From Longimicrobiaceae bacterium (GTDB lineage Bacteria; Gemmatimonadota; Gemmatimonadetes; Longimicrobiales; Longimicrobiaceae): a stretch of DNA of 40,855 bases. Location: positions 1-40,855 of the forward strand of contig JBPCIT010000265.1 of assembly GCA_051006015.1 (NCBI GenBank), given 5' to 3'. The first letter of the stretch is position 1; each line of letters begins with the position of its first letter. Shown in pieces: positions 5,311 to 35,501 of this stretch. Below the pieces are notes generated by a model, which saw only the letters and a program-made list of their open reading frames with translations, did no database searches and had not been told where the DNA came from. A program made the translations under genes and the position numbers.

Positions 5311-6267
5311 TCAGCTCCCCGAACGCAGCCGCTCTCGCAGGAACTGCAGGATGGTGCAGGTCGAGGCGCGGAAGCGCGGCTCGGCGCTGAACTCGGGCAC
5401 GCTGTGCCCCACCCCGGGCAGCTCGATCAGCGTAGCAGGCACGCCGGCGGAGCGCAGAGAGTCGCGCATGGAACGAGACTGGCGGATCGGCACCACCTCG
5501 TCCGCCGTGCCGTGGATGAGCAGGAAAGGAGGGTCGCCCGCGCTCGCGTGCACCGCGGGAGAGGCGAGCAGCGCCCGCGCCGGGTCGGCTTCCGGACGAG
5601 CTCCCAGGAAGTTCTCCACCATCGAGCGCTGCCCGGAATCGAGCGCACCTGCGGTGCGGATGTCGTGCGGGGCTGCGATCGCGACCACGGCGCTCACCGC
5701 GGGCGAGACGTCTCGCAAAGGGCAGGCGCCGTCGAGCCCTTCGACTTCCGCGGCCGTGCCGAGCATCGCCGCGAGGTGCCCACCCGCGGAGCTGCCCAGG
5801 GCGGCAATGCGCGATGGATCGATGTCGTAGGTCGCGGCATTGGCGCGGAGCCACCGCACTGCGCAGCGCACGTCCTCCACCGCGGCCGGAAAGACGTTGC
5901 GAGGCGCCGCCACCAGCCGATAGCTCACCGACGCCGCCGCGTACCCCTGCCCCGCCAGAAGGCGCATGCTGGAATGATAGGCGCTCCTGTCGCCCGCGCT
6001 CCAGCCGCCACCGTGAATGAGCACCACCAGCGGGTGCGGCCCGACATGCTCCGGCCAGGCGATGTCCAGCCGCTGGACCTGCCCATCCATCTCCGCGTAG
6101 GTGACGTTCCCGGCCAGGTTGATGTCGGCCGGACCCGGCGTCCGCGGAATGCTGCACTCCCGGACGATCGCCATTGACTCGCCGCCCGCCTCGCCCGAGG
6201 TCATCGGCGGGGAGACCCCTGCACACGCGCTCAGCAGCAACAGAGCCGAGGCGAAGCTTTGCTTCAT
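5311..6267 (-). CDS. lipoprotein esterase/lipase, alpha/beta hydrolase (HGGG oxyanion hole, GSSAGG nucleophile elbow).
   Basis: Real start taken at the internal ATG (6265-6267), giving MKQSFASALLLLSAC with lipobox LSAC. HGGGW and GSSAGGHLAA motifs, and a C-terminal HGTADEVV region carrying the catalytic Asp/His. Its start abuts the stop of the upstream gene. Confidence 0.8.
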   Translation of the reverse strand: MKQSFASALLLLSACAGVSPPMTSGEAGGESMAIVRECSIPRTPGPADINLAGNVTYAEMDGQVQRLDIAWPEHVGPHPLVVLIHGGGWSAGDRSAYHSSMRLLAGQGYAAASVSYRLVAAPRNVFPAAVEDVRCAVRWLRANAATYDIDPSRIAALGSSAGGHLAAMLGTAAEVEGLDGACPLRDVSPAVSAVVAIAAPHDIRTAGALDSGQRSMVENFLGARPEADPARALLASPAVHASAGDPPFLLIHGTADEVVPIRQSRSMRDSLRSAGVPATLIELPGVGHSVPEFSAEPRFRASTCTILQFLRERLRSGS

Positions 6268-6893
6268 TCCCGCGCGAGAAGCTCGGCTGGCGATATCCAC
6301 TGTCCGAGCGGCAACTGCACCCCCTGCCAGGTGACCAGCTCGTCCACCGGGGTTGGCCCGCCGATCCGGACGGCCGCGATGCTTCTCAGCCCCTGAACAT
6401 GGTCTGGGGAGAGCCAGCTGTTGACGGTCGGATCCCACACCTCGACGCCGCTCTCAGAGAAAACCGCACATGCCTCATGGTATGCCAGACCGTCGCCCGC
6501 CCATTCCGGCGAGGCGTTGCCGGTCATCCACCACCCGTGGAAGTGAGGAAGGTGGTGGCGCTCCTGGCGCTGCACGAGCTGCACAGGTAGGACCCGGCGG
6601 GAGTACGCGCTGAACGCCTCGATCGTCAGCGCCGCGTGGGCGCCGCAGTCGAGCTCTTCGGCATCCAGGGCGTCGCACCAGTGCAGCGGCCAGCGCGTCG
6701 GACCCCAGGGGAAGCGCTGCGCGATCCACCCCGGGCCGCCCTGCCCTCGCCACATCGAGCGGTTCATCGCCATGAACCAGCTGCGCGCGGTCGTACAGCA
6801 ATCGGCGCCATGATGCGTGAGAGTCGAGGGCACCCATGCCTCCCAGGGTGCCCAGGACTGAACTCGTGTCGGCTCAGCAACAAGCATCTTCAA
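6264..6893 (-). CDS. hypothetical Trp-rich protein, possibly with a transglutaminase-like / papain-like Cys-His-Asp core.
   Basis: 209-aa ORF in the operon between the ATP-grasp/decarboxylase fusion and the esterase. Candidate triad context: LDCGAHAAL, HFHGWW, VWDPTV (TGase-like cores often show a C in G-x-C, an H followed by aromatics, and a D in DPT). Weak and unverified. Confidence 0.5.
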   Translation of the reverse strand: MKMLVAEPTRVQSWAPWEAWVPSTLTHHGADCCTTARSWFMAMNRSMWRGQGGPGWIAQRFPWGPTRWPLHWCDALDAEELDCGAHAALTIEAFSAYSRRVLPVQLVQRQERHHLPHFHGWWMTGNASPEWAGDGLAYHEACAVFSESGVEVWDPTVNSWLSPDHVQGLRSIAAVRIGGPTPVDELVTWQGVQLPLGQWISPAELLARE

Positions 6894-9159
6894 GTACTCC
6901 CCTGCCGAAGTTGTAGGCCATGCTGGCGTCGTAGGCGCCAGCGTCTCCGATCACCAAGCAGTCACCCGGCCGGAGCGATTCCGGCACCGCCAGATCCGTG
7001 GCCAGGATGTCCGTCTCCATGCAGATCCGCCCGAGCAGTCGATCGGATCCGCCTCCAAGCACCTCCCACTCGCCGCCCGTGGAGCGGCCGTACACGCGGT
7101 GCGGATAGAAGGACGCCATCGGTAGGTCCGATATCGCCGCGTCCACGACAACCTCGGCTCCGCCTTTCTCGTGCTTGCGCACCTCCAGCACGGTGGTGAC
7201 CAGCGCCATCGTCGGCTGTGCGACCGCCTTGCCGGGCTCGACGAAGAATCGTTGCAGCCCCGGAAGGGTCTCGGCCGCGGCTCCGACCAACTCTTCCAGC
7301 CGGGGCAACAGCTCCGCATCGAAGTCGTCGGGGAACCACCCGCCACCCGAATCGAGGCAGCGCACCGGTCGGCCCACTCCCTGCTCGATCGCGTGCGCCC
7401 AGTGGATCACGCTCTGGAACACCTCCCGCCAGCGTGAGGGGCCGATCACATCGCTGGCGAAATGGAAGTGCACCCCGATCTCCTGCTCGGGCGGAAGCTC
7501 CTTCAGCAGGGCGAGCGTCTCGGCGAAGCGGCTGGGTGTGTCCATCGTCGCGCCGAAGCGCGACGGGACGGTCACGGGCCGCAGCCGGATGCCGAGGTAG
7601 CGGGCCGCGGGAGCGCCCTCGCACATCCAGCGCGCGAAGCTCTGCGGGGAGTCGGCGAACGCGGCCATCAACGCACCGTCGGGCGCCGGGCCGAATGGCC
7701 AGTGCTGGGCGGGGCCGTTCAGAATGATGCGCTCGGCGGGAAAGCCGGCGGCGAGGGCGTGCTGCATCTCCGCGCGGCTGATCACCTCGGCGAACATCCC
7801 GGCCTCCTCCGCGAGCGCGACCAGAGTCGGGTGGGGGTTGGTCTTGATGCTGTAGCCGAAGCCGAGCTCGACGCCCAGCGGGAACTCGGCGGTGGCGCGC
7901 TCGATCTGAGCGAAGCGCGCGCGGGTCGTGTGCGGCAGAAGAATGCGGCGTGGTGTGGCGGAGTCACCAACCAGAGCGCTCGCCAGGTCCTTTTCCACCG
8001 TGACCGGCATCGGCGCCGGCGCTCGGCGGGGCTTCTCCTGCTCAGGCCGTCCGCCGTTCTTGCGGGCTGCGTCCAGCCGCCGCGCCAGGTCAGGCATTCC
8101 CGAGGGGTGCTTCGAGCCGACCTGCCATTCGTCCAGCGGAGCTTTGACGGCGGGCAGCGGATACTGCGGATGCACCGGGATCTCCACGACGACGCGGGTG
8201 AACTGGGCGGCTCGGAAGGGCACCGCCGCCGCCGTTCCGAAACCCGCCGCCTCGACGACCCGCGCCGGGAGGTTGTGCCCCGCGAAGCTCGCGGCGTGGA
8301 TCCAGGCGGGGAACCGGGGGTTCCAGTCGATCAACTGGAGGGTGCCGTCCACGGCGCGCACGAACTCCAGCTCCCCACCGCCCGTCCACTCCAGCTCGGC
8401 GACCACCTCGCGCAGCGGCTCGACGATCGCGGGGTCAGCCGCGGAGACGCGTCCGGCCCACGTCTTCCCCTCCGCCGTCTGCGTCTGCTTGCGCATGTGA
8501 ACGCAGTCGAGCAGCTCGCCCTGATAGGCGCAGAAGGCGAACGACTCCTCGGTACCGAGCACATGCCGCTGCACGAATACCTTCTCGGTGCTCCAGGTGT
8601 CGGAGAGCACAGTGCGGGCGTTGCGGAACGAGGGCCAGTCACGTACGCGCATCGCCTCGTAGTTCGGACCCTTCACCCATACACGCCACCCATGCTGACG
8701 ACAGAAGCTGTGCAGCTCCCAGTCGGAGCGGTCCACCGAGATGAACTCCGGGATCACGAAGGGCAGCTTTCGCGCAGCCTCGATCGACGGTTTGGCGACC
8801 TGCGCAAGCGCGCCCGCCGGTGGAAGGAAGGCCCGGCTGCTGTCGGTGAGCGCGCCAGCCAGCCAATCGACCTCCAGATCCTGCCCCGCGAACCAGAGTG
8901 CCCCCGCGTCGAGGACCGACTGGATCGCCGCCTGATAAAGGGGAAGCTGAAGCTCCTTCCACGGACGCTGCAGCCAGATGTCGTCGAAGACGTCGCTGTG
9001 CAGCCCGGAGCTCTCTACGGAGTAGTCGACCGCGACGAGGTGAGCGTGGGGAAAGGCCTGCCGGAGGGAGAGTGCCACCCCGAGCCCGGGTGAGGGGTTG
9101 GGACCGCTGTGCACACCGCTGAGATAACACGTAAGTCGGCCATCGGCTTCTGCTCGCAT
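6874..9159 (-). CDS. fusion protein: N-terminal ATP-grasp carboxylate-amine ligase domain joined to a C-terminal fold-type-III PLP-dependent decarboxylase (Orn/DAP/Arg decarboxylase family) domain.
   Basis: 761-aa ORF. ATP-grasp hallmarks in the N-half: a CYLSG...GPNP Rossmann-like pre-domain, central VKGPNYEA / VQRHVLGTEESF, and GGELEFVRAVDGTLQLIDWNPRF (E-x-N-P-R). The C-half (from about residue 400) matches DAP-decarboxylase-type motifs: GFGYSIKTNPHP (PLP lysine), AERIILNGP, LDSGGGWF, EPGKAVA, and C-terminal VIGDAGAYDASMAYNFGRG. Confidence 0.85.
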   Translation of the reverse strand: MRAEADGRLTCYLSGVHSGPNPSPGLGVALSLRQAFPHAHLVAVDYSVESSGLHSDVFDDIWLQRPWKELQLPLYQAAIQSVLDAGALWFAGQDLEVDWLAGALTDSSRAFLPPAGALAQVAKPSIEAARKLPFVIPEFISVDRSDWELHSFCRQHGWRVWVKGPNYEAMRVRDWPSFRNARTVLSDTWSTEKVFVQRHVLGTEESFAFCAYQGELLDCVHMRKQTQTAEGKTWAGRVSAADPAIVEPLREVVAELEWTGGGELEFVRAVDGTLQLIDWNPRFPAWIHAASFAGHNLPARVVEAAGFGTAAAVPFRAAQFTRVVVEIPVHPQYPLPAVKAPLDEWQVGSKHPSGMPDLARRLDAARKNGGRPEQEKPRRAPAPMPVTVEKDLASALVGDSATPRRILLPHTTRARFAQIERATAEFPLGVELGFGYSIKTNPHPTLVALAEEAGMFAEVISRAEMQHALAAGFPAERIILNGPAQHWPFGPAPDGALMAAFADSPQSFARWMCEGAPAARYLGIRLRPVTVPSRFGATMDTPSRFAETLALLKELPPEQEIGVHFHFASDVIGPSRWREVFQSVIHWAHAIEQGVGRPVRCLDSGGGWFPDDFDAELLPRLEELVGAAAETLPGLQRFFVEPGKAVAQPTMALVTTVLEVRKHEKGGAEVVVDAAISDLPMASFYPHRVYGRSTGGEWEVLGGGSDRLLGRICMETDILATDLAVPESLRPGDCLVIGDAGAYDASMAYNFGRGVLEDACC

Positions 9160-9306: not shown

Positions 9307-9864
9307 TTACAAGGAGAGCGCCATGACCTGGCGCGGGATCTCCGGCGCATCCGGCGCTCGCGAAGCCTGGATCGCCTGGATCCAGCGCGGTGGCGAGGAC
9401 AGGTTCACGGGCGCCACGATCGTGAACCCCTGGCGTTGCAGCGGAGCCCAGCGGATCGGCGGGGCGACACACCAGATGGTGCGGCACCCGATCTCTCTCG
9501 CCTTGCGGATGCGAATCTGGTCCAGCGCATGACTCAGCCCGCGGCGCTGATACTCCGGATGCACGACCAGCCGGTTGAGAGACGCGATTGGAGCGGGTGG
9601 ATCGATTCCCACCCCGATGAAGAACCCGGCATCCGGCAGCGATCGCACGTCGTCATGCACACACATGCGCGCCGCGGCGATCAACCGGCCCCCATCGCGC
9701 ACCACCCAGTGCATGGCGTGCTCGTCATGCTCGTCCTCGCACACATCGGCCGGGAAACTGCCGTCCCGAAGCACACCAACCGACTTCCACGACTCGATCC
9801 GCAGGCCGAAGACGACCTCCCGCAGGAGATCCGTTTCCCCTGGCTGGATGAGCTGCGGCATCAT
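9307..9864 (-). CDS. GNAT-family N-acetyltransferase.
   Basis: 185-aa ORF. Motif A LVVHPEYQRRGLSHAL (Q/R-x-x-G-x-G/A-like CoA-binding). Same strand as the ATP-grasp/decarboxylase gene and 147 bp upstream of it. Confidence 0.75.
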   Translation of the reverse strand: MMPQLIQPGETDLLREVVFGLRIESWKSVGVLRDGSFPADVCEDEHDEHAMHWVVRDGGRLIAAARMCVHDDVRSLPDAGFFIGVGIDPPAPIASLNRLVVHPEYQRRGLSHALDQIRIRKAREIGCRTIWCVAPPIRWAPLQRQGFTIVAPVNLSSPPRWIQAIQASRAPDAPEIPRQVMALSL

Positions 9865-32159: not shown

Positions 32160-35100
32160 TTACGGTTGCTTCCTACGACGCGGCAGCCAGACGCGGAAGG
32201 TGCTCCCCCGGCCGAGCTCACTCTCGACCTCGACGTCGCCGCCGAGCAGCCGGCTGAACTCCCGGGCTGCCGCAAGCCCGATCCCCATGCCGCCGAATGC
32301 GCGGGTCGTGGCGTTGTCGGCCCGCCAGAATCGCTCGAAGATGTGGGCCTGGTCCTCGGGCGCGATTCCGATGCCCGTATCGCGGACCTCGAAGACAACC
32401 CGCTCCCCCTCCGCTCGTACCTCCAAATTGATCTCTCCGCGCTCAGTATACCTGACGGCGTTGCCGCACAGGTTGACGAGGATCTGGCGGGCCTTGTCGG
32501 CATCCATATCCAGCTCGACGGCCTCGTCTGGAAGGCTCAGGACCAGCGCGAGATCCTTTGCCTCCGCACTGGGCTCGACCAGCACCTTTGCCTCGCGCGC
32601 GATCATTCTCGCGTCCACCTTCTCGTACCGCACCGTCTCGCAACCCTCGTCCAGCTTTGCGAAGGTGAGGATCTCGTCGATCATGGAGGCGAGATGCCAG
32701 CCGCACACCTTGATCCGCTCGATCTTTTCCACCTGCGGTGTCGTGAGCGGCCCATCGAGGTCGAGTAGCTCGGAATAGCCGAGCATCGCAGTGAGCGGGG
32801 TACGGAATTCGTGCGACATCGTCGCCAGAAAGCTCCCCTTGAGCAGGTTCGCCGATTCGGCCGCGATCTTCGCCTCCCGCAGCTCCTCCTGGACCCGCCG
32901 TCGCGCGGTGTTGTCGACGAAGGTGAGCACGGCGCCATCGATCTCGCCCTCGGCGTAACGGTACGGGTTGATGCGGAGGATGTACCACTCGCCGGCGTCG
33001 CTCGACACCTCACGCTCGATCCGCTCCTGCGAGGTGAGCACGCTCTGCGCATCGGCGACCAGGTCGGGGTAGTCGAGCCGGTGGGTGATGTGGGCGAGCG
33101 GACGGCCCTGGTCCGTGGCGACGAAGTTGAAGAGCGTCGCGACCGACGGGGTGAACCGCCGGATCCGCATCGCGCGGTCGAGAAAGATGGTGCCGATCTC
33201 CGTGGATTCGATCAGGTTCTGGAGATCGGCGTTCGTCCGCTTCAGCTCCTCGATCGAGCTCTGGTGCTCCTGGTTGATGGTGGTGAGCTCCTCGTTGATG
33301 GACTGGATCTCCTCGCGGCTGGTCTCCAGCTCCTCGGCCGCCGCCTTCTGCTCCTCGTTGACCGACAGCAGCTCCTGGTTGGCCGACTGGAGCTCCTCCA
33401 CCGTCCGATCGCGCGCCGCGATAGTGGATTCGAGCTGCTCCTCGATCCGACGCAGCTCCTCCTCCGGGCGGGCGACCGCTCGCGGGGGGGGGGGATCCTG
33501 CAGCGCCTCTCCCTCGGCCGCCGGCTCGGTCTCAAGCAGCGCCTCTTCCTCGAAGAGGACCAGGGCGAACCTACCCGCTCTCTCGTCTCCTACCGGTGGG
33601 TTCACCCGCAGGCATAGCGGGGCACCGCCGTTGAGGCGGAGGTGGCGGGTGGTCGGCAGCCCCTTCGCAAAGGCCTGGTAGAGCGCCGTGCGCAGCTCCA
33701 TTCGCAGCTCGGGCGGGGCCAGGTCCATCAGGTCGTGGCTCGGCTCGCCCTCCGCCAGGTGCAGGTAGTCGCCGGCCCGGCCGGAGAGGTGGACCACCTC
33801 GAGCCGCTCGTCCACGACCAGGCTCGCCGGCGCGTAATGCTCGAGCATCCGCAGATGGACCGGCCCGTACGCGAACCGGTGCGGGCGGGACATCTCGATG
33901 GCATCCGCCGGTCGGCCGCCGGGCCGGGAAGGCGGATCCGCGGCCGAGAGCCGCGGCAGGACCCGGTGCGGGGTGGCGTTGCGGCGGTAGATCCGCGACG
34001 CCCGCGCGACGGGCACGAAGCGCCCGCTCTCCCCCGCCGACTCCGCCGAGCCGAGGAAGAGCAGCCCCTGCGACCGCAGCGCATAGTGGAAGGTCGCGAT
34101 CGCCTGTTCCTGAGCCGCCGGCTGGAGGTAGATGAGCAGGTTCCGGCAGCTGATCAGGTCGAGCCGCGAGAAGGGTGGGTCGTGCAACACGTTGTGGACG
34201 GCGAAGAGCACTCCCTCGCGCAGCGGCTTCTTGATCCGGTAGCCTCCCGCCTCCTGGGTGAAGTAGCGGCGGAGCCGCTCGGGCGGGATCTCCGCCACGG
34301 CAGAGGCCGGGTAGATGGCCGCGCGGCCCCGCGCGTAGCCCTTCTCGTCGATGTCGGTGGCGAAGATCTGGATCTGCGGCGGGTGCTCCAGGGTGGCCGC
34401 GTGCTCGTTCGACAGGATGGCGATCGAGTAGGCCTCCTCGCCCGTGGCGCACCCCACCACCCAGACACGCACCGCGTCATCCGGTCCCTTGCCCTCGAAG
34501 AGCGCAGGAATCGCCTCCGCCAGCGCGCTGAACGCCTCCGGATCCCGGAAAAAGGAGCTCACCGAGATCAGCAGGTCCCGCACGAGCGCCCGGGCCTCGG
34601 TCTCACTCGCCCGCAGCATCGGCAGATAGTCCTCGAGGGTCGCCGCACCATTGAAGCGCAGCCGCCGCTCGAGCCGGCGCAGGATGGTGGAGGGCTTGTA
34701 CAGGCTGAAGTCGTGGCCGGTCTTGCCACGCAGTACGGCGAAGATCTGGGCCAGCTGCGCCTGGGTGTCCCCGGGAGGCGAGTCGACCTCGAGGGGCGAC
34801 GGCATCCGCCGGAGGCGAAGCAACTCGGCGGGGACCCGCGCCGACGGTAGCACCAGGTCGATCTGCCCGGTCGCGATCGCGCTCTCCGGCATCCCGTCGT
34901 ACTCGGCTTCGTCCGGCGACTGGGCGACCGTGATGCCACCGCACTCCTTGATGTGCCGGGTCCCCGACGCGCCGTCGCTGCCGGTGCCGGAGAGCACAAC
35001 GCCGACCGCATCCGGTCCGCACGCCTCGGCGAGTGTGCGGAAGAAAAGGTCGATGGGCGAATGCTGCGGTCCGTCGCCGCGCTCCTGCAGGCGGAGGGTC

Positions 35101-35501
35101 GCGTCCTGTATCGTGAGGTCGTGGCCCGGCGGGATGATGTAGATGTGGTCGGGCTCCACCGTCGTCGTCCCGGTGACCTGCGTCACAGGGACCGAAGTCC
35201 GGTCCTGCAGGAGCGCGGCGATGCGGCTCTCCCGCTCCGGGTCCAGGTGCATGATCACCACGTATGCCATGCCGCTGTCGGCCCGCACCGACTGGAAGAA
35301 GAGCTGCAGCGCCTTCAGCCCGCCCGCCGAGGCACCGATCCCCACGACCGTCAGCGGGCCCCGATCTCCTACATCGGGGCTGCTAGCCTGTTCGGGAAGG
35401 ACCGCCTGAGTCATGGCTGCCTCGAAGGAAGTGAGGGCCGCTCGCGCGGCCGAGGCCAACGGTGACCATCGATCAGAAGGCGCTCCACTTCGGAGAACCA
35501 T
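32160..35501 (-). CDS. multidomain chemosensory fusion: CheB-type methylesterase + CheR-type methyltransferase + coiled-coil/PAS + histidine kinase (HisKA + HATPase_c). Start possibly at the ATG at 35414.
   Basis: GIGASAGGLKAL...YVVIMHLDP (CheB catalytic domain); VRVWVVGCATGEEAYSIAIL (CheR SAM-binding); long heptad region (ELQSANQELLSVNEEQKAAAEELETSREEIQSINEEL); FLATMSHEFRTPLTAM (H-box); LVNLCGNAVRYT, VRDTGIGI, GGMGIGLAAAREF (N, G1, G2 boxes). Confidence 0.9.
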   Translation of the reverse strand: MVLRSGAPSDRWSPLASAARAALTSFEAAMTQAVLPEQASSPDVGDRGPLTVVGIGASAGGLKALQLFFQSVRADSGMAYVVIMHLDPERESRIAALLQDRTSVPVTQVTGTTTVEPDHIYIIPPGHDLTIQDATLRLQERGDGPQHSPIDLFFRTLAEACGPDAVGVVLSGTGSDGASGTRHIKECGGITVAQSPDEAEYDGMPESAIATGQIDLVLPSARVPAELLRLRRMPSPLEVDSPPGDTQAQLAQIFAVLRGKTGHDFSLYKPSTILRRLERRLRFNGAATLEDYLPMLRASETEARALVRDLLISVSSFFRDPEAFSALAEAIPALFEGKGPDDAVRVWVVGCATGEEAYSIAILSNEHAATLEHPPQIQIFATDIDEKGYARGRAAIYPASAVAEIPPERLRRYFTQEAGGYRIKKPLREGVLFAVHNVLHDPPFSRLDLISCRNLLIYLQPAAQEQAIATFHYALRSQGLLFLGSAESAGESGRFVPVARASRIYRRNATPHRVLPRLSAADPPSRPGGRPADAIEMSRPHRFAYGPVHLRMLEHYAPASLVVDERLEVVHLSGRAGDYLHLAEGEPSHDLMDLAPPELRMELRTALYQAFAKGLPTTRHLRLNGGAPLCLRVNPPVGDERAGRFALVLFEEEALLETEPAAEGEALQDPPPPRAVARPEEELRRIEEQLESTIAARDRTVEELQSANQELLSVNEEQKAAAEELETSREEIQSINEELTTINQEHQSSIEELKRTNADLQNLIESTEIGTIFLDRAMRIRRFTPSVATLFNFVATDQGRPLAHITHRLDYPDLVADAQSVLTSQERIEREVSSDAGEWYILRINPYRYAEGEIDGAVLTFVDNTARRRVQEELREAKIAAESANLLKGSFLATMSHEFRTPLTAMLGYSELLDLDGPLTTPQVEKIERIKVCGWHLASMIDEILTFAKLDEGCETVRYEKVDARMIAREAKVLVEPSAEAKDLALVLSLPDEAVELDMDADKARQILVNLCGNAVRYTERGEINLEVRAEGERVVFEVRDTGIGIAPEDQAHIFERFWRADNATTRAFGGMGIGLAAAREFSRLLGGDVEVESELGRGSTFRVWLPRRRKQP

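Follow-up and report, generated by a model that had tools for sequence, protein, structure and literature searches.

We analysed a 40,855-nt stretch of DNA from a Longimicrobiaceae bacterium (contig JBPCIT010000265.1; hereafter the window) and found that a gene at 6874..9159 on the minus strand encodes, from an ATG start to a stop codon, one polypeptide of 761 residues in which an ATP-grasp ligase domain, a conserved connector, and a fold-type-III pyridoxal 5'-phosphate (PLP) decarboxylase domain follow one another. This is a genuine and complete fusion, uncharacterised so far, that occurs widely. Its 3' end is overlapped by a gene for a protein with a predicted transglutaminase fold (hereafter the partner), and the signature of the system is three activities, namely, an ATP-grasp ligase, a PLP decarboxylase, and a transglutaminase-like enzyme. 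Our tentative reading, which we would place just short of an even chance, is that the fusion and the partner form a self-contained, carrier-independent module that ligates and then decarboxylates in small-molecule amide or amine chemistry.

The open reading frame (ORF) of the fusion contains no internal stop codon. Context was counted in a set of 84 loci, and conservation was assessed in an alignment of 98 homologues. Both domains lie within one ORF in 84/84 loci and span approximately query residues 9 to 754 in nearly all of them; the few shorter spans are cut where a contig ends. The initial annotation of this DNA had proposed that the ligase and the decarboxylase form a single polypeptide, and this proposal was borne out. 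The occurrence of one ORF across both domains in all of these loci excludes a hidden frameshift or stop in the linker, and an assembly artefact was likewise ruled out.

A search of 5.8 billion proteins with the fusion returned 888 matches at E ≤ 1e-5, and among the matches listed were more than 100 full-length homologues (≥98% coverage) with identities of 44 to 96%. They came from Longimicrobiaceae and other Gemmatimonadota, Pyrinomonadaceae, Abditibacteriaceae, Chloroflexi, Isosphaeraceae, Caulobacteraceae, Syntrophomonadaceae, and a Bathyarchaeia metagenome-assembled genome (MAG). In a scan of GTDB with one genome per species, relatives were encoded in 328 species, from phyla including Gemmatimonadota, Acidobacteriota, Alpha-, Beta-, and Gammaproteobacteria, Abditibacteriota, Chloroflexota, and Actinomycetota. 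Cultured carriers are Sphingomonas qilianensis CGMCC 1.15349, S. xinjiangensis DSM 26736, Pseudomonas akapageensis PS24, and Streptomyces zaomyceticus NBC_01228; in the last strain, the gene is on the linear plasmid NZ_CP108525.1, and its product is 37.6% identical over 98% of the protein. PGAP calls both the fusion and the partner on the Streptomyces plasmid "hypothetical protein", and many members are labelled "diaminopimelate decarboxylase" by JGI. Soil and desert crust are among the sources. We found no description of an ATP-grasp/fold-type-III decarboxylase fusion in the full-text literature, where an earlier computational mention (the amidoligase survey of Iyer et al. 2009) is possible, and the architecture is covered neither by a family of Pfam or NCBIfam nor by a solved structure that we could find. 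The claim that no enzyme of this kind had been described is therefore upheld to that extent.

The C-terminal half (residues 380–761; 6877..8022, minus strand) matched Pfam Orn_Arg_deC_N (PF02784, the TIM-barrel PLP domain) with 54.6 bits and Orn_DAP_Arg_deC (PF00278, the C-terminal beta-sheet domain) with 33.8 bits, both above the gathering score. It carries the motifs YSIKTNP with the PLP-binding Lys439 (codon at 7843..7845, minus strand), DSGGGW (605–608), and EPGKA (641–645), and residues K439, H564, H566, G605 to G607, E641, C713, and Y743 are invariant across the homologues. K439, H566, G605 to G607, E641, C713, and Y743 align with their counterparts in diaminopimelate decarboxylase (DAPDC). 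We take their roles from the literature on ornithine decarboxylase (ODC) and DAPDC to be those of the Schiff-base Lys, the PLP-stacking His, the Gly-rich phosphate loop, the Glu of the EPG motif, the active-site Cys, and the Tyr of the GAY motif, respectively. The C-terminal motif quoted in the initial annotation (GAYDASMAYNFGRG) is present in the fusion protein, as DAGAYDASMAYNFGRG at residues 739 to 754. By contrast with the label given by JGI, an identity with the DAPDC LysA was ruled out: the LysA equivalog TIGR01048 scored 106.9 bits against a cut-off of 297.9, the EPGR motif of DAPDC is EPGK in the fusion (E641-P-G-K644), and the segment 'DLIRPSIY' is aligned to 'DLPMASFY', with an exchange of Arg for Met. 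The two Arg residues of DAPDC, in EPGR and in the 'RP..Y' loop, presumably hold the distal carboxylate of diaminopimelate (DAP).

The N-terminal half (residues ~9–331; 8167..9135, minus strand) is more divergent. ATPgrasp_Ter of Pfam scored 21.9 bits in the window protein, under its gathering score of 29.1, and recurred in 16/16 diverse members of the fusion family at E ≤ 0.1, with a best E of 2.4e-9. A profile of the domain matched the biotin-carboxylase ATP-grasp domain of the methylcrotonyl-CoA carboxylase alpha subunit (MCC-alpha) with an E of 1.5e-4, and in this alignment K163, E265, D278, N280, and R282 occupy the positions of the Lys that binds ATP, of the residues that ligate Mg, and of the catalytic Arg. 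The ATP-grasp catalytic set, consisting of a Lys, two acidic residues and an Asn for Mg, and the Arg of E/D-x-N-x-R, is thus present; K163, E263, E265, N280, and R282 are invariant across the homologues, and position 278 is Asp or Glu. A phmmer search of the domain against PDB sequences gave no match, and no curated family scored above its cut-off (PRK12767, 18 bits against 218). Because this half scores under every curated cut-off tested, it represents a divergent, unnamed ATP-grasp family and, judged by sequence, both halves fall outside any curated family below the superfamily level. The claim that both domains are complete with their catalytic signatures was confirmed by the alignment, in which no catalytic residue is missing. 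The quoted SIKTNP, GGGW, EPGKA, and C-terminal motifs also stand, but the ATP-grasp motif of the window protein reads D278-W-N280-P-R282 and not E-x-N-P-R; the first position is Glu in many homologues.

An AlphaFold2 model of the whole fusion chain, built with the 98-sequence alignment, had a pLDDT of 90.7 and a pTM of 0.90, which suggests that the two domains take up a defined mutual arrangement. The N-terminal half shows the pre-ATP-grasp, central, and C-terminal subdomains of the ATP-grasp superfamily fold. Its structural neighbours were 2pn1, of the PRK12767 type (score 23.5), PylC (21.0), PurD (20.6), BacD (19.8), and PurT and PurK (~19), followed at lower rank by Ddl/VanA (~16), RimK (15.2), LysX (14.9), and a graspetide ligase (14.7); small-molecule ligases thus outrank RimK, LysX, and the graspetide ligases. 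For the decarboxylase half, the neighbours were DAPDC 2p3e (30.8), the N-citrylornithine decarboxylase FslC (30.7), BtrK (28.9), and SbnH (28.8). The nearest relatives of this half other than LysA all use amino acids that have been conjugated beforehand through the side chain: the substrate of BtrK is gamma-Glu-S-ACP (ACP, acyl carrier protein), that of FslC is N-delta-citrylornithine, and that of SbnH is a citryl-diaminopropionate. Fold-type-III PLP decarboxylases require a free alpha-amino-acid head group. No PDB chain spans both halves, and the query-normalised TM-score in Foldseek was at most 0.39, with matches to the decarboxylase only.

The two domains are joined by a connector at residues 332 to 379 (8023..8166, minus strand), the limits of which follow from a split form of the family in which the halves end at about 331 and begin at 383. 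The initial annotation had described a Pro/Arg-rich linker of ~60 aa; a connector does exist and is Pro/Arg-rich in part, but it comprises ~48 aa, not far from that estimate, and only residues 368 to 385, the last few of which already belong to the decarboxylase part, are Pro/Arg-rich. That variable stretch has a mean column conservation of 0.25, whereas residues 332 to 367 have 0.55 to 0.65, similar to the domains, so that the connector is not a mere spacer. A KHPSG motif occupies residues 350 to 354 (8098..8112, minus strand), with K350 invariant and H351 to G354 at least 90% conserved in the 98 homologues; the spacing from P328 to K350 is 20 to 23 aa in all of these sequences, and a helix is predicted at residues 355 to 367 directly after the motif. 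We considered KHPSG as the N-terminus of the decarboxylase and ruled this out, because a stand-alone decarboxylase aligns only from residue 383. The initial annotation had also suggested an obligatory coupling of ligation and decarboxylation, possibly with channelling. This is plausible and would fit a conserved connector of fixed length together with the confident whole-chain model.

The split form occurs in the Nitrospirota MAG GCA_004298335.1 (SCTG01000183.1: 4907-8539; locus L087), where an O-methyltransferase gene is followed by a gene for a stand-alone ATP-grasp protein (335 aa, TAL08682.1), then by a 109-aa ORF that carries no annotation, and last by a gene for a decarboxylase that likewise stands alone (388 aa). 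The ATP-grasp protein ends at the equivalent of residue ~331, and the decarboxylase is 41% identical, its alignment beginning at residue 383. Neither half contains the connector element, which is specific to the fused proteins; the 109-aa protein occupies the place where the connector would be. The presence of a split form of the same family indicates that the fusion as such is dispensable for function, which speaks against an obligatory coupling.

The partner gene (6264..6887, minus strand) encodes 207 aa from an ATG at 6887 (the ORF lister had chosen a TTG at 6893), and its 5' end overlaps the 3' end of the fusion gene by 14 nt. The protein is 100% identical to the database protein P0121. 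It had no Pfam or NCBIfam match at E ≤ 0.01, Transglut_core included, and a search of its profile against PDB sequences returned chance matches only (E ~2). In the predicted fold, Cys83 (codon at 6645..6647, minus strand) opens a helix of residues 83 to 95, and His139 (6477..6479, minus strand) and Asp154 (6432..6434, minus strand) lie on the following strands, as in the transglutaminase-like or papain-like core. Cys83 and His139 are invariant among the partner homologues, and position 154 is Asp or Asn. The partner is thus placed in the transglutaminase-like fold class through its predicted structure only. It shares its core fold and the order and placement of Cys, His, and Asp/Asn with CtaJ, AdmF, GdmF, arylamine N-acetyltransferases, LapG, and PeiW. 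Further conserved motifs beyond this fold were observed at residues 28 to 73 (within 6477..6893, minus strand), namely, HHG-x2-CC (H28, C32, C33) and WGP-x2-WP-x2-WC, with an invariant C73; these residues may serve as a metal site or in a disulfide.

A partner homologue lies directly downstream of the fusion gene on the same strand in 81/84 loci; in the other three, the contig stops at the fusion gene. The partner is therefore present in 81/81 informative loci, with the translationally coupled overlap, and a homologue is also found on the Streptomyces plasmid. In addition, the partner domain is part of the same polypeptide in some eukaryote-looking sequences. The 1370-aa P0317 (L089:105-4217, Logan SRR10664324) contains, in this order, SAM_3, the partner domain (hmmsearch E 1e-15), ATP-grasp, and the decarboxylase, and the 1282-aa P0295/P0316 (JGI) carries the partner domain (E 4e-9) N-terminal to the ATP-grasp–decarboxylase part. 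The occurrence of the domain on the same polypeptide in two independent sequences is Rosetta-stone evidence that the partner is a functional member of the system. These eukaryote-looking fusions (P0317, P0295/P0316, and P0283) are 1180 to 1370 aa long with long low-complexity linkers, and P0295 has an insert of ~140 aa close to the C-terminus of the decarboxylase. A bacterial single ORF of 944 aa that joins fusion and partner (P0200/P0328, NCBI and JGI) was not used as evidence; it probably arose from a frameshift where the two genes naturally overlap, since at the junction unrelated sequence stands in place of the C-terminal GAYD...FGRG of the decarboxylase.

The initial annotation had placed a peptidyl carrier protein (PCP) downstream and had assumed a carrier-tethered mechanism of the BtrJ/BtrK type. 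The downstream gene turned out to be the one for the transglutaminase-fold partner. No PP-binding domain was found among the genes called up to 8 kb away in three loci, each of a different phylum (L001, L003, and L005), nor in the partner, esterase, N-acetyltransferase, and other flanking genes of the window, and no conserved ORF of 25 to 110 aa was found near the module in the 84 loci. A precursor peptide, including one of a peptide that is made by ribosomes and modified after translation (RiPP), and a small carrier were ruled out, because the clusters of conserved small ORFs were shadow ORFs within the partner gene or within the gene of a frequent neighbour, the HxD..H family described below. 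Since no carrier occurs at the locus, its gene content does not support a carrier-tethered mechanism of the BtrJ/BtrK type.

The closest known chemistry is nevertheless that of BtrJ/BtrK and CtaD/CtaF, an experimentally established tandem of an ATP-grasp enzyme and a decarboxylase of the Orn/DAP/Arg family that acts on side-chain-linked Glu or Asp (PMC7183216). As the initial annotation had stated, ligase and decarboxylase are separate proteins both in BtrJ/BtrK/BtrI for the butirosin side chain and in CtaD/CtaF/CtaE for the closthioamide backbone (PMC7183216). The decarboxylase half of the fusion is related to BtrK and CtaF, but those systems use separate proteins and a phosphopantetheinyl carrier, and a PCP is found in the locus of 95% of CtaD homologues (PMC7183216), whereas the module combines one polypeptide and an invariant transglutaminase-fold partner with no carrier found at the locus. 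The transglutaminase homologues CtaJ and AdmF form amide bonds in pathways of this kind (PMC7898593). FslC (rhizoferrin) and SbnH (staphyloferrin B) differ in relying on a separate synthetase of the IucA/IucC type, of nonribosomal peptide synthetase (NRPS)-independent siderophore (NIS) biosynthesis, instead of an ATP-grasp ligase; no NIS synthetase and no siderophore or siderophore-transport gene was present among the annotated neighbours of the loci inspected. PylC and the PRK12767 'carbamoyl-phosphate-synthase-like' group (2pn1) have marginal sequence similarity to the ATP-grasp half, all of it under the curated cut-offs, and unlike PylC the module occurs in a context that has no PylB, PylD, or pyrrolysine genes. 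The nearest conceptual precedent for a fused enzyme that conjugates and decarboxylates is FrbH of FR-900098 biosynthesis (PMC8976061). The conjugating domain of FrbH is a cytidylyltransferase and not an ATP-grasp domain. Its decarboxylase probably has a different PLP fold.

On this basis, the following course may be envisaged for a carrier-independent module. The ATP-grasp domain would activate a carboxylate as an acyl-phosphate and couple it to an amine, in such a way that an alpha-amino-acid head group stays free in the product. Either a diamino acid could be acylated at its omega-amine, following the logic of PylC, FslC, and SbnH, or Glu or Asp could be linked to an amine through the side-chain carboxylate, following that of BtrJ and CtaD. 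The fused PLP decarboxylase would then strip the alpha-carboxylate from the conjugate and leave a terminal primary amine, as in a mono-acyl-diamine or an omega-aminoacyl amide. Finally, the Cys-His-Asp/Asn triad of the partner would, through a thioester at Cys83, catalyse acyl transfer or amide hydrolysis on the product or its precursor. The product of the module is probably an amine-containing compound.

Several points weigh against this course. Homology and gene context are the grounds from which each mechanistic step is inferred, as are the class of substrate, the sequence of the steps, and the role of the partner. The split Nitrospirota form has no transglutaminase-like gene in the surrounding 13 kb, and the partner may therefore be unnecessary for the core chemistry. 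The proposed likeness of the ATP-grasp half to BtrJ and CtaD is one of chemistry, and neither enzyme has a solved structure. The variable flanks of the loci and the housekeeping genes in the window mean that no biosynthetic cluster hints at a product. Lastly, the SAM_3 domain of the eukaryote-like triple fusion would suit a protein-directed function.

The missing carrier can be accounted for in two other ways. Cys83 of the partner might replace the phosphopantetheine thiol, so that the ATP-grasp domain would load the side chain of Asp or Glu onto Cys83, the tethered residue would be decarboxylated to a beta-alanyl or 4-aminobutyryl group, possibly in several rounds, and the partner would pass the acyl group to an amine. 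Such self-templated thioester chemistry would agree with the acceptance of N-acetylcysteamine in place of PCP by CtaD and the need of CtaF for a tethered substrate (PMC7183216), and with the use of Cys thioesters by transglutaminase-fold enzymes, of which CtaJ and AdmF accept thioester substrates (PMC7898593). It would also suit the constant presence of the partner in loci where no PCP was found, and the fusion of the partner domain N-terminal to ATP-grasp in P0317 and P0295, which resembles the carrier domains of megasynthases. However, the closest solved relatives of the ATP-grasp half join free small molecules, the split Nitrospirota form has no partner nearby, and we know of no precedent for an ATP-grasp enzyme that acylates the active-site cysteine of an enzyme; we therefore regard self-templating as unlikely. 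If true, it would be a new route to amide-linked metabolites across bacteria, archaea, and eukaryotes, with a widespread unknown compound as its product, and repeated rounds could give beta-alanyl or 4-aminobutyryl oligomers. Alternatively, the pathway could be thiotemplated in the manner of BtrJ/BtrK, on a substrate tethered to a PCP or an ACP encoded downstream or elsewhere in the genome. BtrK is close to the decarboxylase half in structure and sequence, and the frequency of PCP genes beside CtaD homologues indicates that such chemistry is usually thiotemplated (PMC7183216). The identity of the downstream gene, the lack of PP-binding Pfam domains in the three loci and in the flanks of the window, and the lack of a conserved 25–110-aa ORF around the module all argue against it, and we consider this pathway very improbable.

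Other explanations dispense with a small-molecule product or with a shared pathway. The ATP-grasp domain might append an amino acid to a side chain or terminus of a protein, which the decarboxylase would trim and the partner, as a peptidase, would remove again, on the model of tubulin tyrosine ligase and vasohibin. Vasohibin (a tubulinyl-Tyr carboxypeptidase), LapG, and PeiW are among the structural neighbours of the partner, RimK and LysX are detectable as relatives of the ATP-grasp half, and SAM_3 is a protein-interaction domain. Against such protein or peptide modification, neither a conserved small ORF nor a candidate target protein stands beside the module, the accessory genes encode oxygenases, GNAT proteins, and small-molecule transporters, and the need of a PLP decarboxylase for a free alpha-amino group limits the possible linkages to protein; this explanation, too, seems improbable to us. 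It is hardly credible that the two halves act on unrelated substrates, for example, as a DAP decarboxylase of the LysA type with a regulatory or degenerate ATP-grasp domain, and that the fusion is mechanistically meaningless. The JGI label, and DAPDCs as the top matches in both sequence and structure, would fit such an arrangement, but the LysA equivalog is far under its cut-off, the fusion has EPGK in place of EPGR and lacks the Arg of "LIRPSIY", the catalytic residues of the ATP-grasp domain are invariant, contrary to what a degenerate domain would show, and the connector is conserved and the pairing with the partner strict. A carrier-independent module acting on small molecules is the reading that we retain, at the tentative strength stated at the outset.

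In the window, the module is flanked on one side by genes for a GT4 glycosyltransferase, a methyltransferase, and an esterase, and on the other side by genes for a GNAT protein, a permease of the xanthine/uracil family, an HD protein, a class II aminoacyl-tRNA synthetase, endonuclease III, and PolX. The flanks vary from genome to genome among the Gemmatimonadota loci, which indicates that the moving unit is a two-gene cassette. The esterase (5311..6267, minus strand; Pfam BD-FAE, 1.3e-54) is a probable lipoprotein, the N-terminus of which, MKQSFASALLLLSAC, resembles a lipoprotein signal with a lipobox as read from the sequence, and its ATG overlaps the TGA of the partner gene (ATGA, 6264..6267). 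A homologue of the esterase (49% identical) is found near the module in L001 only, and the esterase is probably a lineage-specific neighbour and not a core component. The GNAT acetyltransferase (9307..9864, minus strand) lies 148 nt upstream of the fusion gene and matched Pfam Acetyltransf_1 (4.6e-10), with FeeM (N-acyl amino acid synthase) below its cut-off. A second GNAT family adjoins the module in nine other loci from four phyla, to which the GNAT of the window is not detectably orthologous; an N-acetyltransferase may thus be a recurrent yet replaceable accessory. Both the esterase and the GNAT were ruled out as core parts on these grounds. No PADLOC model of an anti-phage defence system matched the fusion or its partner, and none matched the GNAT, the esterase, or the HxD..H protein. 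Elsewhere in the window, an ORF of 1113 aa (32160..35501, minus strand), which has no relation to the fusion, appears by eye to encode a methylesterase/methyltransferase region of the CheB/CheR type and, after it, segments of coiled-coil, PAS-like, and histidine-kinase character.

The most frequent accessory is an orphan family of ~240 aa with an invariant H-x-D...H...R pattern, found in 59/84 loci, always adjacent to the module and often duplicated. Its motifs read AH-x-DH ... NQ(F/Y)HG ... R, and examples are L003:6564-7256 and 7258-8001 and L005:6864-7529 (minus strand). In Acidobacteriota, Abditibacteriota, and Alphaproteobacteria, the gene is immediately upstream of the fusion gene, either co-directional (often duplicated) or divergent. 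The family had no match in Pfam, NCBIfam, or a PDB profile search, no homologue was present in the Gemmatimonadota loci, and a tblastn search of the window gave nothing convincing. By its motif, on which the comparison rests, it is reminiscent of Fe(II)/2-oxoglutarate oxygenases. Other accessories are an oxygenase of the TauD family (13 loci), one GNAT family (the nine loci in four phyla mentioned above), a transporter of the major facilitator superfamily (at least two loci), and a membrane protein of the urea-transporter family (Pfam UT) in three beta- and gammaproteobacterial loci. The UT gene is directly downstream of the partner gene in Polaromonas, Janthinobacterium, and P. akapageensis (L044:10899-11858, L077:6462-7520, and L074:11013-11873 (minus strand)), in L074 on the opposite strand, which hints at a small polar amide or amine crossing the membrane. 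On the Streptomyces plasmid NZ_CP108525.1, a gene for a 505-aa "fatty acid desaturase" (L091:14914-16431) comes after the fusion and the partner, and is a third, unrelated type of oxygenase beside the module. With oxygenases, acetyltransferases, and transporters of small molecules as its accessories, the module would seem to act on a metabolite and not on a protein.

To our knowledge, tandems of an ATP-grasp enzyme and a decarboxylase come from only two characterised pathways, those of butirosin and closthioamide. Fusions of consecutive pathway enzymes are common, which tempers the interest of the fusion as such. The family nevertheless exposes an annotation gap, with the fusion mislabelled or called hypothetical and with the partner and the HxD..H protein belonging to no family. 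If the inferred coupling of ligation and decarboxylation is true, the module would make a so far unknown metabolite, an amine or an amide, that soil bacteria commonly produce, and it would supply a new signature for genome mining, invisible to searches based on NRPS, polyketide synthase (PKS), or PCP genes. The module is directly testable, since four cultured strains carry the genes.

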